Of a DNA stretch of 64,000 nucleotides, positions 1,588 to 44,685 are shown piece after piece (within the stretch, counting starts at the first letter, position 1; each line of letters begins with the position of its first letter). The DNA lies in assembly GCF_030384885.1 (NCBI RefSeq), contig NZ_CP128613.1; one strand, 5' to 3'. Origin of the DNA: Escherichia coli (GTDB taxonomy: Bacteria; Pseudomonadota; Gammaproteobacteria; Enterobacterales; Enterobacteriaceae). The translations under genes and the position numbers were made by a program. The notes below the pieces were generated by a model that had not been told where the DNA came from, ran no database searches, and was given only the letters and a program-made list of their open reading frames with translations.

Positions 1588-1645
1588 TGTCTTAAACCTA
1601 TAAAAAAGGCGCAGAATCCTGCGCCTTTTGTTTCAAGAGTTAGCT

Positions 1646-4351
1646 TTATTGCAGGCGACCGTGGCACTGCTTGTATTTTTTACCAGAACCGCACGGGCAA
1701 GGATCATTACGTCCAACTTTGCGTTCACCGGTTTGTGCCGCCAGTGCAGCTGCGGCTGCAGAGTCATCATCCTGATGGCTAAGCTGCTGCATTTGCGCTA
1801 AACGCTCGGCTTCCATACGACGCTGTTGTTCCAGCTCTTCAACCTCTTCAGGCATACGTACCTGGACTTTGCTCAGCGTGCTGATGACTTCATATTTCAG
1901 CGACTCCAGCATCGCTGCAAACATGGAGAACGATTCACGTTTGTATTCCTGCTTCGGATCTTTCTGTGCATAGCCACGCAGGTGGATACCTTGACGCAGA
2001 TAATCCATCGCTGCCAGGTGCTCTTTCCACAGGGAGTCAAGCGTTTGCAGCATGACGCCTTTCTCGAAGTGACGCATCATCTCAGCGCCAACCACTTCTT
2101 CTTTACGCTGATACACTTCGATGGACTGCGCCAGAATACGCTCACGCAGCGTCTCTTCATGCAGTTCTGGCTCTTTGTCCAGCCACTCGGCAATCGGCAA
2201 ATCGAGGTCGAAATCGTTCTTCAGACGTTCCTGCAGCCCCGGAATATCCCACATTTCTTCCAGCGACTGCGGCGGAATGTAGGCATCGATGGTCGCTTTG
2301 AACACATCTTCACGAATGCTGTTGATGGTATCGCTCACATCGCTGACATCCAGCAGTTCATTACGCTGGGAGTAAATAGCGCGACGCTGATCGTTAGCCA
2401 CGTCATCATATTCCAGCAGTTGCTTACGAATATCGAAGTTACGGCTTTCAACTTTACGCTGAGCGTTGGCAATCGCTTTGGTCACCCACGGGTGCTCGAT
2501 GGCTTCGCCTGGTTTCATACCCAGTTTACGCATCATGCCGGAAACACGGTCAGAAGCAAAAATACGCATCAGCGCATCTTCCATCGACAGGTAGAAACGG
2601 GAAGAACCGGCATCCCCCTGGCGCCCAGAACGACCGCGTAGCTGGTTATCGATACGACGAGATTCGTGACGTTCTGTACCGATGATATGCAGACCACCTG
2701 CAGCCAGTACCGCATCGTGACGCACCTGCCAGTCGGCTTTGATTTTTTCAATTTGCTCTGCGGTCGGATTTTCCAGCGCGGCAACTTCTGCCTGCCAGCT
2801 ACCACCGAGCACAATATCTGTACCACGACCCGCCATGTTAGTCGCGATAGTCACCGCCGCCGGATAACCCGCTTGTGCAACAATCGCTGCTTCGTTAGCG
2901 TGGAATTTGGCGTTCAGAACGTTGTGTTTGATACCGGCTTTGGTCAGCTCGTTTGACACCAATTCCGATTTTTCGATGGAGATAGTACCCACCAGCACTG
3001 GCTGGCCCTTCGCAGTACGCTCTTTGATATCTTCGATGATCGCCTGGATTTTTTCCGCTTCAGTCATATAGACCAGATCTGGCAGATCTTTACGAATCAT
3101 CGGACGGTTGGTTGGAACAACAACGGTATCCAGCTTGTAGATTGAGCTAAATTCGAAAGCTTCGGTATCAGCAGTACCGGTCATGCCCGCCAGTTTTTCA
3201 TACAAACGGAAGTAGTTCTGGAAGGTGATCGACGCCAGCGTCTGGTTTTCGTTCTGAATCTGTACACCTTCTTTCGCTTCCACTGCCTGATGCAGGCCAT
3301 CGGACCAGCGACGTCCCTGCATGGTACGACCGGTGTGTTCATCAACGATGATAACTTCACCATCTTTAACGATGTAGTCGACGTCACGGGTAAACAGTGC
3401 GTGAGCACGCAGCGCCGCGGTTACGTGGTGCATCAGCATAATATTAGCCGGAGAGTACAGCGACTCCCCTTCATCCATGATGCCTTCTTTCACCAGCAGC
3501 TCTTCGATCAGCACCAGACCACGTTCAGTCAAGTTCACCTGGCGAGATTTTTCATCCACCGAGAAGTGGCCTTCGCCCTGGAAGGTTTCGGAGTCTTCTT
3601 TTTCCTGACGAATCAGGTGCGGAATGATTTTGTTCACGCGTTTATACATTTCCGAGCTGTCTTCAGCCGGGCCGGAAATGATCAGCGGTGTACGCGCTTC
3701 ATCGATCAGGATGGAGTCCACTTCGTCCACCAGCGCATAGTGCAGTTTACGTTGTACACGTTCTTCAGGGCTGAATGCCATGTTATCGCGCAGGTAGTCA
3801 AAGCCGTATTCGTTGTTCGTACCGTAAGTGATGTCAGCTGCGTAAGCTTCACGCTTCGCCGGTGCTGGCATGCCCGGCAGGTTGATACCGACAGTCAGGC
3901 CAAGGAATTCAAACAGCGGACGGTTGTTTTCGGCGTCACGTTGCGCCAGGTAGTCGTTGACGGTAACAACGTGTACGCCCTTACCGGTTAATGCGTTCAG
4001 GTAAGCAGGCAGCGTTGCGGTCAGGGTTTTACCTTCACCGGTACGCATTTCCGCGATGCAGCGTTCGTTAAGAACCATACCGCCGAGTAACTGAACGTCG
4101 AAGTGACGCATACCAAAGACGCGCTTACTTGCCTCACGCACCACAGCGAAAGCTTCTGGGATCAGATTTTCCAGCACTTCGCCTTTTTCCAGACGTGCAC
4201 GAAACTCTGCGGTTTTCCCTTTCAGTTCTTCGTCGGAGAGTTTTTCCATCTCCGGTTCCATGGCATTGATGATGTTGACGACTTTGCGCATCCGGCGCAG
4301 GGTGCGATCGTTACGACTACCGAAAACTTTAGTTAATAATTTGATTAGCAT
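1646..4351 (-). CDS. secA: preprotein translocase ATPase SecA
   Basis: 901-aa ORF with Walker A GEGKT and C-terminal zinc-binding [14 protein letters not shown]. Confidence 0.95.
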
Positions 4352-4412
4352 AATAAAATCTCAAACGCCCCGTGTTGCGGAGTCAATAAAATGAAATAAA
4401 GGTTTATTGTTG

Positions 4413-5140
<728 letters not shown>

Positions 5141-6173: not shown

Positions 6174-7325
6174 TTAATCAGCTTGCTTACGCAGGAATGC
6201 TGGGATATCCAGATAATCCGGCTCTTTCGCAGTTTGCGGTGCGTTGTCATTCACGACTTTAGCAACCGGTTTCTGCTCCTGAGTCAGCGGTGCCATCCCG
6301 TGCTGCTGGTAGCGATCCATCACTGGCTGCTGAACCTGCTTATTGGTCACCAGGGTGATTTCAGGACGTTTGTCCATACCGATACCTGTCGCAACAACAG
6401 TTACGCGCAGCTCGTCATTCATATCCGGGTCAAGAGAAGTACCGATAACCACAGTTGCGTTGTCGGATGCAAATGCACGGATGGTGTTACCTACCGTTTC
6501 GAACTCATCCAGACGCAGGTCGAAGCCCGCCGTGATGTTAACCAGCACGCCGCGCGCGCCAGACAGATCGATATCTTCCAGCAGCGGAGAGGAGATAGCC
6601 ATTTCAGCAGCTTCTTCCGCACGGTCTTCGCCGCTCGCCACACCAGAACCCATCATTGCGTAGCCCATTTCAGACATTACGGTACGTACGTCTGCAAAGT
6701 CCACGTTCATCAGGCCTGGACGAGTAATCAGTTCAGCGATACCTTGCACAGCACCTTTCAGTACATCGTTCGCTGCGCCAAATGCATCCAGCAGGGAAAT
6801 ACCGCGGCCCAAGACTTTCAGCAGTTTGTCGTTAGGGATAGTGATCAGAGAGTCCACATGCTTGGACAGTTCTGTGATCCCCTGCTCAGCGAATGCCATA
6901 CGCTTCTTGCCTTCAAAGTTGAAAGGCTTAGTCACGACAGCAACGGTCAGGATCCCCAAATCTTTTGCCACTTCAGCGACAACTGGTGCTGCACCAGTAC
7001 CGGTACCACCACCCATACCCGCAGCAATAAAGACCATGTCTGCACCTTCCAGCGCCGCACGCAGTGCATCGCGATCCTCATCAGCCGCATTACGGCCAAC
7101 TTCTGGATTTGCGCCAGCTCCCAGTCCTTTGGTGATACCGCTACCGATTTGAATCGTCTGTCCAACCGCTGTTTTACGCAGCGCTTGTGCATCGGTATTT
7201 ACCGCGAAGAATTCAACACCTTCAATGCGCTCGCGCACCATGTGTTCAACAGCATTACCGCCGCCGCCGCCGACGCCGATGACTTTAATCACCGCGTCAT
7301 TGGTAAGTTCCATTGGTTCAAACAT
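6174..7325 (-). CDS. ftsZ: cell division GTPase FtsZ
   Basis: 383-aa ORF with tubulin signature GGGTGTG and N-terminal [12 protein letters not shown]. Confidence 0.97.
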
Positions 7326-7385
7326 AGTTTCTCTCCGATTTGTGCCTGTCGCCTGAGGCCGTAATTATCGTCGGCCTCATAAAAA

Positions 7386-8648
7386 TTAAAACTCTTTTCG
7401 CAGCCAACTATTGAGTCGCTTGATCCACGAGCCAACTGATGCTGTAACACGTTTTTCTACTTCAGCTTCACCGTTAAGATGTGACTCTTTCCCATAGTGA
7501 AGCAATCCCACCGCCGTCGAATAATACGGCTCCTGAGCATAATCCGTTAAACCGGTAATGTTCAGCGGCGCGCCGATACGCACTTGCGTATGAAACACGC
7601 GCTGAGCACAGGCTGCAAGACCTTCGATCTGCGCTGCGCCACCAGTTAAAACAATGCCTGCCGCCAGGTGATGTTTAACCCCTTGTTGGCGAAGCTTTTC
7701 CTGCAACTGCAATATCTCTTCGTTGACCAGGTTGAGCAGCTCGGTATAGCGCGGCTCGATCACCTCTGCCAGGGTCTGACGTTGCAGACTCCGCGGTGGA
7801 CGACCGCCTACGCTAGGCACTTCCACGCTCTCATCTTTTCCAACGATGGAACCCAGCGCACAACCGTGGCGAACTTTAATCGCTTCGGCGTCGCTTGGCG
7901 GCGTGCCAAAGGCGTAAGCGATATCACTGGTCACGACATTGCCAGCATAAGGAATTACCTTAGTGTGGCGCAATGCCCCACCGGTATAAACGGCGATATC
8001 CATTGTACCACCACCGATATCGACGACGCAGACACCCAGTTCACGTTCATCTTCCGTCAATACCGAATAACTTGATGCCAGTCCGGCAAATATCAGTTGG
8101 TCAACTTTCAGCCCACAACGTTCAACCGCTTTGACGATGTTTTTCGCCATATCGTTGTGACATGTGATCAGGTGCACTTTTGCCTGCATCCGCACGCCCG
8201 AAAGTCCTACCGGATTCTTGATCCCTTCCTGATAGTCAATCGCATACTCTTGCGGGATCACATGCAGCACACGATGCTCATCGCGCACACGCACTGATTT
8301 CGCGGTATGGACGACGTTTTCCACATCTTCTTGCGTCACTTCTTCTTCAGAAATAGGCACCATACCAATTTCATTCTGGCAGCTGATGTGCTTACCAGAA
8401 AGCGCCAGATATACCGAAGAGATCTGACAATCTGCCATCAATTCTGCCTGGTCAATGGCGCGTTGTACGCACTTGACCACGGATTCGAGGTCGTTCACCC
8501 CGCCTTTATCCATACCACGCGACGGGCAGCTGCCCACGCCAATGATATTGACCATACCGTCGGGCAGAACTTCCCCTACTAAAGCGGCAACCTTCGCGGT
8601 ACCAATCTCCAGTCCTACTACCAGTTTTCTGTCCGTCGCCTTGATCAT
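7386..8648 (-). CDS. ftsA: cell division protein FtsA (actin-like ATPase)
   Basis: 420-aa ORF; dcw cluster synteny. Confidence 0.95.
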
Positions 8649-28260: not shown

Positions 28261-28919
28261 ACTTAACTCCACTGTCACACTTAACTCCCTTTCCCTTATT
28301 GGAATGCAGAGAAATAATCCTCGAGAATATGATTTATCATGCATATAAAATAAGAAAAAGGAAAATGAGAAAAATTAGGAAAACATAAAGATACGGGTTC
28401 TTATAAAAACAGAACCCATTGCCGAGTAAAGAGTCATTTACCGCAGCATAATAATCCATAATGTTTTTGTTGCGAAAGCAATCTAATCATAACTACCGCG
28501 AATACTCAATCATCCACAAAATGGATTAAATGTGCTTTTTTAATAATTAATTTATATGTTTAATGCATTAATTCTTAACATTAATCGAACAATAATATTC
28601 ACCAAATGAATATCAAAAAAATTAGCAAAACATATAATTCAATACAAATCATCAAGATAGGTTTTGTAACGCGTGCATTTTATCCCCCTTTTCCTCGTTG
28701 ATTAGATACAAAAATTTATTCTGAAATATGTCAACCGATGAAAAGCGTCGGTGGTTAAGCAGAAATTAATATCGCTTGTTTTAACCACTGCAGCACAATT
28801 AGCTAATTTGACGAATGCAGAACTCACTCTGGCGGAACGTTTTTGTTGCGTCAGGGTTGACATCCGTTTTTGTATCCAGTAACTCTAAAAGCATATCGTA
28901 TTCATCTGGAGCTGATTTA

Positions 28920-29006
28920 ATGACTCACATCGTTCGCTTTATCGGTCTACTACTACTAAACGCATCTTCTTTGCGCGGTAGACGAGTGAGCGGCATTCAG
29001 CATTAA
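28920..29006 (+). CDS. leuL: leu operon leader peptide
   Basis: 28-aa peptide [28 protein letters not shown] with four consecutive Leu codons. Confidence 0.9.
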
Positions 29007-29019
29007 GCCAGCACGCAGT

Positions 29020-29056
29020 CAAACAAAAAACCCGCGCCATTGCGCGGGTTTTTTTA
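29020..29056 (+). terminator. leu operon attenuator terminator
   Basis: Stem aaacccgcgc...gcgcgggttt followed by a T-run, between leuL and leuA. Confidence 0.8.
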
Positions 29057-31763: not shown

Positions 31764-33780
<2,017 letters not shown>

Positions 33781-33811
33781 TTTGTACACCGTCCGGCACT
33801 CAATCGCCAAA

Positions 33812-34040
33812 AAGAAAAAAGCCAGCAGATAATCACTGCTGGCGTGGCGATTAACACCAATACTCAGTCACACATGATGTCCGCAAATCAGTAGTCAGAA
33901 TGACTCCCCTCCCACTGCATCAGCTCTTCAAGCATGGTTAATCGTTGTGGGACGCTTAACCAACGCAACCAGCACAACGTCGCTGTCGCGGTAAAATAGT
34001 GCTGATAAAACTGACGCATGGGGCACCTCCTTGCTTCATC
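33812..34040 (-). ncRNA. sgrS: SgrS small RNA (glucose-phosphate stress), dual-function
   Basis: 5' end reads GATGAAGCAAGGAGGTGCCCCATG on the minus strand; ptsG-pairing region GTGTGACTGAGTATTGGTGT; 3' hairpin ccagcagtgattatctgctgg plus T-run; divergent from sgrR. Confidence 0.8.
33888..34019 (-). CDS. sgrT: SgrT small protein encoded within SgrS
   Basis: 43-aa ORF MRQFYQHYFTATATLCWLRWLSVPQRLTMLEELMQWEGSHSDY inside the sgrS transcript. Confidence 0.7.
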   Translation of the reverse strand: MRQFYQHYFTATATLCWLRWLSVPQRLTMLEELMQWEGSHSDY

Positions 34041-34107
34041 GTTAGGAATTATTGACTTAATATAGGGAAAATAAAATTGCTGACTTTTGCGCAGGAGTTC
34101 CCCTTTT

Positions 34108-35763
34108 ATGCCATCCGCTCGTCTGCAACAACAGTTCATCCGCCTGTGGCAATGCTGCGAGGGTAAATCGCAGGACACGACGCTCAACGAACTGGCAGCG
34201 TTATTGAGCTGCTCGCGTCGTCATATGCGCACCCTGCTCAACACCATGCAGGATCGCGGCTGGCTGACGTGGGAAGCGGAAGTCGGGCGCGGTAAACGCT
34301 CTCGTCTGACATTCTTCTACACCGGGCTGGCGCTTCAGCAACAGCGAGCAGAGGACCTGCTGGAGCAGGATCGTATCGATCAACTGGTGCAACTGGTTGG
34401 CGACAAAGCGGCTGTGCGGCAAATGTTGGTTTCTCATCTGGGGCGTACCTTCCGCCAGGGGCGGCACATCCTGCGCGTTCTCTACTATCGTCCGTTGCGC
34501 AATCTGCTGCCCGGCAGTGCATTGCGCCGTTCCGAAACCCATATCGCCCGGCAAATCTTCAGTTCGCTAACGCGCATAAATGAGGAAAATGGGGAACTGG
34601 AAGCAGACATCGCCCACCACTGGCAGCAAATATCACCGCTTCACTGGCGCTTCTTTTTGCGTCCAGGAGTCCATTTTCACCATGGTCGTGAACTGGAAAT
34701 GGACGATGTGATCGCCTCTTTAAAACGAATCAATACGCTTCCGCTCTATTCACATATTGCGGACATTGTGTCGCCGACGCCCTGGACGCTGGATATCCAT
34801 CTCACGCAACCGGACCGCTGGTTACCGTTACTGCTGGGGCAAGTTCCGGCGATGATCCTGCCACGAGAATGGGAAACCCTCAGTAACTTTGCCAGCCATC
34901 CCATCGGCACCGGTCCGTATGCGGTGATCCGCAACAGCACCAATCAACTGAAAATTCAGGCATTCGATGACTTCTTCGGTTACCGGGCATTAATCGACGA
35001 AGTTAACGTCTGGGTTCTGCCGGAAATTGCCGACGAGCCAGCCGGCGGTCTGATGCTAAAAGGTCCACAGGGCGAGGAAAAAGAGATTGAAAGTCGGCTG
35101 GAGGAAGGTTGCTACTATTTACTGTTCGACAGCCGCACCCACCGTGGGGCGAATCAGCAAGTCAGGGACTGGGTAAGTTATGTGCTTTCTCCAACTAATC
35201 TGGTCTATTTCGCCGAGGAACAATACCAGCAACTCTGGTTTCCGGCTTATGGACTGCTCCCCCGCTGGCATCATGCCCACCCGGCGCAGTGCGAAAAACC
35301 TGCCGGGCTGGAAAGCCTCACCCTGACCTTTTATCAGGATCATATTGAGCATCGGGTGATTGCCAGGATCATGCAGCAGATTCTGGCAAGTCATCAGGTC
35401 ACACTTGAAATTAAAGAGATCAGCTATGATCAGTGGCACGAAGGAGAGATCGAGAGCGATATCTGGCTTAACAGCGCCAACTTTACGCTGCCGCTGGATT
35501 TTTCGCTGTTCGCGCACTTGTGCGAGGTGCCGCTGCTCCAACACTGTATTCCGATCGACTGGCAAGCCGACGCCGCCCGCTGGCGCAATGGCGAAATGAA
35601 CCTGGCGAACTGGTGCCAGCAACTGGTCGCCAGCAAAGCAATGGTGCCGCTCATCCACCACTGGCTGATCATTCAGGGGCAACGCAGTATGCGCGGCCTG
35701 CGCATGAACACTCTCGGCTGGTTCGATTTTAAATCCGCGTGGTTTGCGCCACCGGATCCATGA
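34108..35763 (+). CDS. sgrR: transcriptional activator SgrR
   Basis: Start trimmed to [15 protein letters not shown] to give 551 aa; N-terminal HTH plus solute-binding-like domain. Confidence 0.9.
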
Positions 35764-35794: not shown

Positions 35795-35890
35795 CGCCGT
35801 TCTCAACGGGGTGCCACGCAGACGCGTGCGCTGAGAAAATACCCGTCGAACCTGATCCGGATAACGCCGGCGAAGGGATTTGAGGCTCCT
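35795..35890 (+). ncRNA. TPP riboswitch (THI element) in the thiBPQ leader
   Basis: Conserved THI-box segments ggggtgcc ... ctgaga ... acccg ... gaacctgatccggataacgccggcgaaggga upstream of thiB. Confidence 0.8.
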
Positions 35891-35926
35891 TCTCAAGTCC
35901 TTTGCCACTCTTCTTTGAGGTGCAAA

Positions 35927-44571: not shown

Positions 44572-44574
44572 GTA

Positions 44575-44682
44575 GCCGCATCAGGTATGTAACGCCTGAT
44601 GCGACGCTGACGCGTCTTATCTGGCCTACACGTTCCGATTTTGTAGGCCGGATAAGCAAAGCGCATCCGGCACGAAGGAGTC
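44575..44682. repeat. REP element cluster
   Basis: Palindromic units gccgcatcaggtatgtaacgcctgatgcgacgc and taggccggataagcaaagcgcatccggc between araA and araD. Confidence 0.6.
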
Positions 44683-44685
44683 AAC

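Follow-up and report, generated by a model that had tools for sequence, protein, structure and literature searches.

A common setA-less, CFT073/O157-type allele of the sgrS–sgrT locus in an Escherichia coli genome

Locus organization and identity of the small RNA

The window, that is, the whole stretch of 64,000 nucleotides of Escherichia coli DNA that was analysed, carries on its minus strand a gene for the small RNA SgrS with the sgrT open reading frame (ORF) inside it, flanked by the divergent gene sgrR on one side and by leuD on the other (Table 1). The RNA was identified as a full-length match to the Rfam covariance model RF00534 (all model positions, 1-232 of 232; score 228 bits, gathering cut-off 37; E = 5.8e-65). 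A sequence-only reading of the same DNA had recognized a dual-function sRNA SgrS with an embedded SgrT ORF at 33812-34040; the Rfam and Pfam matches agree with this assignment, the ORF is intact, and the coordinates were right to within 2 nt of the Rfam match.

Table 1 Positions of the features of the sgrS–sgrT locus in the window
Feature	Coordinates	Strand	Details	Basis
leuD	33175..33780			
Spacer from sgrS terminator to leuD stop codon	33781..33813	.	33 nt, without setA	
SgrS small RNA	33814..34040	-	227 nt, +1 at 34040	Rfam RF00534
Rho-independent terminator	33814..33843	-	8-bp stem GCCAGCAG/CUGCUGGC with 7-nt loop (33821-33843), then T6 tract (33815-33820) and C at 33814	Terminator scan
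Small internal hairpin, first hairpin of the Hfq-binding module	33845..33859	-	SgrS nt 182-196, UGGUG-UUAAU-CGCCA	Fold
Base-pairing (seed) block	33854..33879	-	SgrS nt 162-187, CATCATGTGTGACTGAGTATTGGTGT; identical to K-12	
sgrT coding sequence	33888..34019	-	43 aa + TGA; ATG 34019-34017, TGA 33890-33888	ORF and Pfam PF15894
sgrT codon 14	33978..33980	-	ACG (Thr); AAG (Lys) in K-12, CFT073 and O157	
GGAGG Shine-Dalgarno sequence	34026..34030	-	SgrS nt 11-15, 6 nt before ATG	Sequence alignment
Divergent sgrR–sgrS intergenic region	34041..34107	.	67 nt; sgrS promoter and SgrR-responsive sequences	
sgrR, transcriptional activator of sgrS	34108..35763	+	551 aa, divergent from sgrS	ORF and RefSeq annotation in collinear record

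The gene order upstream of sgrS is the one expected of this small RNA, with the divergent sgrR and a conserved promoter region next to the sgrS +1. The intergenic region is 97% identical to that of K-12, and the 46 nt preceding the +1 contain a single mismatch; this region has been reported to be conserved and needed for activation by SgrR (PMC2760817). The sgrR gene itself shows 94.0% nucleotide identity to K-12 sgrR, and beyond it lie a TPP riboswitch and thiBPQ. The riboswitch (35797-35896, plus strand) is standard, and K-12 annotates the sRNA SroA at the equivalent position. SgrS of the window is 87.8% identical to that of K-12 overall, with 98% identity over nt 1-115 and 74% over nt 116-227. 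Promoter-like matches on the plus strand inside sgrS are weak consensus matches. A 99-aa ORF that starts at TTG (33888-34187) was rejected as a mechanical artefact, namely, the sgrT frame run upstream through the promoter into the sgrR start.

Over its first 50 kb, the window is collinear with RefSeq E. coli 2013C-4282, with 7 differing positions, and in that record sgrT is annotated at exactly the window coordinates, with the protein WP_001248772.1. Gene by gene, these 50 kb show ~94-97% identity to K-12 and to CFT073, which are closer to each other; for the genes that flank sgrS, the values are ~94-96%, against ~96.5% between K-12 and CFT073. This pattern suggests that the window strain belongs to an outlying E. 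coli lineage. The notion that the window is not from E. coli at all, given flanks at ~95% identity to K-12 and CFT073, was rejected in view of the 7 SNPs per 50 kb that separate it from 2013C-4282.

Several other features of the window were noticed along the way. The leucine operon leader ahead of leuA (28906-29055, plus strand) is standard. The Rfam family PssrA ('plasmid-encoded Shigella sRNA A') matches the minus strand at 7317-7406 with 107 bits, on the 3′ end of the chromosomal ftsA and the ftsA-ftsZ junction, a region for which the K-12 annotation has the antisense RNA StfZ on the other strand; this Rfam family probably was built from a homologous segment. Another Rfam match, to STnc40 (1602-1670, minus strand, 77.6 bits), covers the secA 3′ end and the secA-mutT gap. 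The intergenic gap between araA and araD (44572-44685) is 114 nt long, against 284 nt in K-12, where there are ~170 nt extra.

The SgrT peptide and its start signals

The sgrT ORF lies in the 5′ half of SgrS and runs for 43 codons from an ATG, preceded by the GGAGG sequence, to a TGA. The conceptual translation, MRQFYQHYFTATATLCWLRWLSVPQRLTMLEELMQWEGSHSDY, matches Pfam PF15894 over residues 3-37 (48.2 bits; cut-off 27), whereas an NCBIfam scan found no matching family for either this peptide or K-12 SgrT. The public protein collection contains exactly this peptide, from at least 1,000 contigs, as 'glucose uptake inhibitor SgrT' under 'MULTISPECIES ... [Escherichia]', and its RefSeq accession is WP_001248772.1.

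Comparison with the K-12 peptide taken from annotated K-12 records (MRQFYQHYFTATAKLCWLRWLSVPQRLTMLEGLMQWDDRNSES) reveals differences at 8 of the 43 residues (K14T, G32E, D37E, D38G, R39S, N40H, E42D and S43Y), six of them within the last seven positions. The sequence-only reading had suspected that the C-terminus differs from that of K-12, and this suspicion was borne out, with EELMQWEGSHSDY in the window against EGLMQWDDRNSES in K-12; the two peptides are clearly not identical. The same reading had suggested that the peptide would then be a small natural variant; however, the variant is not a private one, given that its C-terminal form is found in ~40% of complete E. coli genomes and is typical of the genus, with K-12 as the outlier.

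To see which residues are constrained, we relied on a cross-genus alignment of 17 SgrT sequences; the homologs from other genera came from an exhaustive HMMER search, whereas a word-indexed search yielded almost only Escherichia. All eight residues that are invariant in this alignment (F4, Y5, Y8, F9, W17, L18, L27 and W36) and all five near-invariant ones (R26, L30, L33, M34 and Q35) are kept in the window. The motif F4 Y5 Y8 F9 W17 L18 L27 L30 L33 W36 is, accordingly, fully preserved; conserved leucines and a polar-aromatic motif of SgrT have been described previously (PMC2760817). After W36, both the length and the sequence of the peptide vary across genera. At position 32, glutamate is the majority state and the glycine of K-12 is the outlier, and the tail of the window peptide is closer than that of K-12 to the cross-genus consensus MLEELMQWE.

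Codon 14 contains the only base that differs between the window and CFT073 SgrS. Position 14 is variable across genera (K, T, R, H, G, N and D), and threonine is found at this position also in E. whittamii and in two Escherichia strains of the cryptic clades, E4208 and E2748. Within E. coli, this codon is rare: a 68-nt stretch containing the ACG is found exactly in 14 of the 5,399 complete genomes that have the locus. K14T is thus the sole rare element of the window SgrS/SgrT within E. coli, and it sits at a variable position. Because both the variable tail and K14T lie outside the family-invariant residues, these differences are most likely neutral. A literature search found no experiment on either the CFT073-type SgrT or K14T. 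The K-12 peptide binds EIICB-Glc (PtsG) and blocks glucose transport (PMC3901232), and inhibition of PtsG by the window SgrT is carried over, by analogy, from this activity.

The start region differs from that of K-12 in a way that could affect translation. At the position of the Shine-Dalgarno sequence, K-12 has GGGGG, which forms the hairpin GGGG-GUG-CCCC that masks the ribosome-binding site; in local folds, this hairpin appears in K-12 only and is absent from the window. The K-12 stem-loop has been reported to inhibit sgrT translation and to be present in only 3 of 15 strains (PMC2760817). An 81-nt segment that includes the GGAGG and the ATG is found exactly in 3,310 of 5,399 complete E. 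coli genomes. Because the GGAGG is exposed, in contrast to the self-paired GGGGG of K-12, the window SgrT probably is translated better than that of K-12; better translation than in K-12 has been reported for Salmonella. However, full-length minimum-free-energy folds of both the window and the K-12 alleles show the sgrT start region paired to codons 33-37, and translation in the window therefore may stay limited despite the exposed GGAGG.

The 3′ half of SgrS and the downstream gene setA

The base-pairing block, which includes the published ptsG-pairing nucleotides, is embedded in a 3′ half that is otherwise 74% identical to K-12; alignment of this seed with K-12, suggested as a check by the sequence-only reading, gives identity over all 26 nt. 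The same 26 nt are found exactly in 35 species representatives from six genera (Escherichia, Citrobacter, Klebsiella, Raoultella, Salmonella and Superficieibacter). The seed is complementary to the ptsG ribosome-binding region ACCCATACTCAGGAGCAC, as read from the K-12 ptsG locus. The cognate gene of the window strain lies outside the window; at the population level, 5,379 of 5,424 E. coli genomes show conservation of at least 99% over the ptsG -110..+10 region. The pairing between the seed and ptsG was judged by the identity of the 26 nt and the visible core complementarity; an unconstrained RNAduplex run (60 nt of SgrS, 140 nt of the ptsG leader) yielded an over-extended, uninformative duplex.

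Downstream of the seed, the window and K-12 alleles form the same two-hairpin 3′ module from different sequences. The counterpart of the small internal hairpin in K-12 is GGUG-UAAAAU-CACC, that is, the same structure built from other nucleotides. The terminator stem is closed by a G-C pair in the window and by G·U in K-12, with hairpin energies of -14.4 and -12.9 kcal/mol, respectively, and the T tract (33809-33820, minus strand) reads T6-C-T5, compared to T8 in K-12. Terminators of Hfq-binding sRNAs have been reported to carry seven or more T, with K-12 SgrS ending mostly in 7-8 U; extension of the terminator stem shortens the poly(U) tail, and transcripts with a shortened tail lose Hfq binding and target repression (Morita et al. 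2017). The window retains both hairpins but has only six consecutive T, followed by a C, against the 'seven or more' rule, and Hfq binding of its SgrS therefore could differ from that in K-12. The T6-C tail is found also in other Escherichia and in many Citrobacter species. In O157:H7, where sgrS has the same 3′ half and terminator as the window, an sgrS deletion makes the strain sensitive to alpha-methylglucoside, and complementation reverses the effect (PMC13293527), a phenotype that, by analogy, supports the functionality of the window allele class.

In K-12, sgrS and leuD are separated by a 1,179-bp setA gene, which is transcribed by read-through of the sgrS terminator; the K-12 interval compared with the window spacer is 3273-4527 of locus L001. 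No such gene turned up when the window was searched by blastn with K-12 setA as the query. Without setA downstream, read-through of the sgrS terminator in the window reaches no cargo gene. It is plausible, judging from the stem and the gene order, that the slightly tighter terminator correlates with the lack of anything downstream in the setA-less haplotype; the T6-C form of Citrobacter, for its part, sits upstream of setA.

The prevalence of the two arrangements was assessed in 5,426 complete E. coli genomes, 5,399 of which have the locus. Alleles at least 95% identical to that of the window are present in 2,158 genomes, and alleles of the K-12 type, ~90% identical over only the first 272 nt, in 3,241. 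The window-type 3′ end abutting leuD was found in 2,143-2,157 genomes and the K-12-type 3′ end joined to setA in 3,240-3,242, with setA itself present in 3,241; the two junction types sum to 5,399 (3,242 + 2,157) and apparently are mutually exclusive. The tract that differs between K-12 and the window extends from sgrT codon 32 through the terminator to the setA junction, and across the 5,399 genomes, the type of the SgrT tail is fully linked to the presence or absence of setA. The C-terminal tail of the window peptide thus represents a major allele class, with a share of ~40% among complete E. coli genomes.

In E. albertii, E. whittamii and the cryptic Escherichia clades, SgrT consists of 43 aa with the tail EELMQWEGS(D/H)S(D/E)Y, the terminator is of the window type, and setA is missing; indeed, every non-coli Escherichia species examined lacks setA. 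By contrast, setA is located directly downstream of sgrS in all examined other genera that share the seed (Citrobacter, Klebsiella, Raoultella, Salmonella arizonae and diarizonae, and Superficieibacter). After the seed, the K-12-type sequence is similar to those of Superficieibacter, the uncultured Enterobacteriaceae MAG UBA5654 and one unidentified locus (L012), and the window-type sequence to those of E. albertii and many Citrobacter.

These observations fit an early loss of setA in Escherichia, after which some E. coli retained or re-acquired the gene, with the breakpoint located within sgrT. One locus, in Escherichia sp. MOD1-EC7003 (L048), encodes, upstream of the seed at 430-455, a hybrid SgrT, MRQFYQHYFTATATLCWLRWLSVPQRLTMLEELMQWDDRNSES, in which T14 and E32, shared with the window, are joined to the K-12 tail DDRNSES and accompanied by a K-12-type terminator and setA, an arrangement consistent with recombination inside sgrT. 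A more far-reaching scenario, which we offer only tentatively and consider rather unlikely, is that the window represents the ancestral Escherichia state, that the K-12-type 3′ end (DDRNSES, T8 and setA) is a block that some E. coli re-acquired or retained, and that the two haplotypes are alternative designs of the stress module. If so, one design would combine a leaky terminator feeding setA with an SgrT that is poorly translated in some strains, and the other a tighter terminator and no exporter with a well-translated SgrT, and their physiology would differ.

Function of the window allele and comparison with known systems

The locus is real but ordinary: a known dual-function sRNA in a known, common allele, whose RNA, peptide, class and exact protein sequence had all been published or catalogued before. 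We are confident (probability of roughly 93%) that it is a functional sgrS–sgrT locus of the setA-less, CFT073/O157-type Escherichia allele. The mechanism is known for K-12 SgrS and is extended to the window from the conservation of every element. Under glucose-phosphate stress, SgrR would activate the sgrS promoter, and the 227-nt SgrS would bind Hfq via its 3′ double hairpin and U tail. The 26-nt seed would then pair with the ribosome-binding region of ptsG, and also with manX and other targets, blocking translation and triggering RNase E-dependent decay. The 5′ half of the RNA would be translated into the 43-aa SgrT, a post-translational inhibitor of the PtsG (EIICB-Glc) transporter.

Three other explanations, each concerning one element of this scheme, have to be weighed. 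The interrupted U tail (U6-C) and the stronger stem might impair Hfq binding, making the window SgrS a weaker riboregulator than its K-12 counterpart, as could be expected from the T6-C-T5 tract, the G-C closure and the lower hairpin energy, together with the loss of Hfq binding and repression that follows stem extension and poly(U) shortening (Morita et al. 2017). We consider this unlikely, given that the same terminator is present in O157:H7, where sgrS is required for alpha-methylglucoside tolerance, that the T6-C tail is shared with many Citrobacter and other Escherichia, and that the stabilisation amounts to only 1.5 kcal/mol, against the change from -10.7 to -24.0 in the engineered stem of Morita et al. 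2017. It is, furthermore, highly unlikely that sgrT is a silent pseudo-ORF in the window allele, with only the riboregulator working, as proposed for O157:H7. The closely related O157:H7 allele indeed has the ATG start replaced by ATT, K-12 SgrT is made at very low levels, and the full-length folds pair the start region with codons 33-37; the window, however, keeps the ATG with a canonical GGAGG 6 nt upstream, an intact reading frame with all invariant residues, and no trace of the K-12 inhibitory hairpin, and the coding part is 98% identical to K-12 compared to 94-95% for the flanking genes, which fits purifying selection.

The remaining explanation attributes a changed function to SgrT, through the tail, K14T or both, with an altered affinity or specificity for PtsG that may also compensate for the missing SetA exporter. 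Eight of 43 residues do differ, with six of the changes clustered among the seven C-terminal positions, tail type and setA state go together without exception in 5,399 genomes, and the setA-less allele is very strongly conserved, with one change over 226 nt compared to ~5% divergence of the flanks. Nevertheless, we find a changed function very improbable: the segment after W36 varies across genera, including homologs reported to complement E. coli mutants, position 14 is variable as well, and the linkage between tail and setA is explained more simply by physical adjacency, because the divergent tract begins at codon 32 and continues across the terminator as far as the setA junction. The conservation itself, 99.6% identity between the window and CFT073 SgrS compared to ~95% for the flanking genes, points to either strong constraint on the whole sRNA or recent exchange, in an outlying lineage.

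For this system, it is K-12 that emerges as the atypical reference, with its masked ribosome-binding site, G32, DDRNSES tail and linked setA, whereas the window form is carried by ~40% of E. coli and by all other Escherichia species examined. Work in K-12 on SgrT dosage, terminator read-through and SetA therefore may not transfer directly to B2, O157 and cryptic-clade strains.

K-12 SgrS/SgrT (b4577/b4662) is the experimentally characterised reference for this locus. The two systems have the same lengths (227 nt and 43 aa) and share the divergent sgrR, the promoter region, the 26-nt seed, the two-hairpin Hfq module and the invariant SgrT residues, whereas the GGGG/CCCC masking hairpin, the T8 tract and a setA gene that is directly downstream and co-transcribed by read-through are found in K-12 only. 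The SgrT peptides of E. albertii, E. whittamii and the cryptic clades differ from that of the window by a few more substitutions, for example, H40D, T12I and V23A. SgrS of O157:H7 is 98% identical to the window RNA and belongs to the same setA-less haplotype, with the same 3′ half and terminator. Its sgrT start, however, is changed from ATG to ATT (Horler & Vanderpool 2009, PMC2760817), which is presumed to abolish SgrT, whereas the window keeps the ATG; O157:H7 differs from the window also by K14 and by a synonymous change at codon 32, and it has espY2, which encodes a T3SS effector, inserted between sgrR and the TPP riboswitch (L003, 523-1092), where the window has no such insertion.

The closest known system is that of CFT073 (sgrT WP_001248768.1), whose SgrS is identical to that of the window at 225 of 226 nt. 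The tail EELMQWEGSHSDY, the GGAGG, the seed, the hairpins, the T6-C terminator and the lack of setA are common to both, and the difference is codon 14, AAG in CFT073 and ACG in the window (K14T). CFT073 also has an IS200C transposase gene between sgrS and leuD (L004, 7078-7536) that is absent from the window. The SgrS RNAs of CFT073 and O157 Sakai were reported to share 99% identity with each other and 88% with K-12, and CFT073 SgrT was included as a separate sequence, 'EcCFT', in the published SgrT alignment (Horler & Vanderpool 2009, PMC2760817). Judged by its sequence, the window RNA is the CFT073/O157-type SgrS described in 2009, plus one base that gives K14T.
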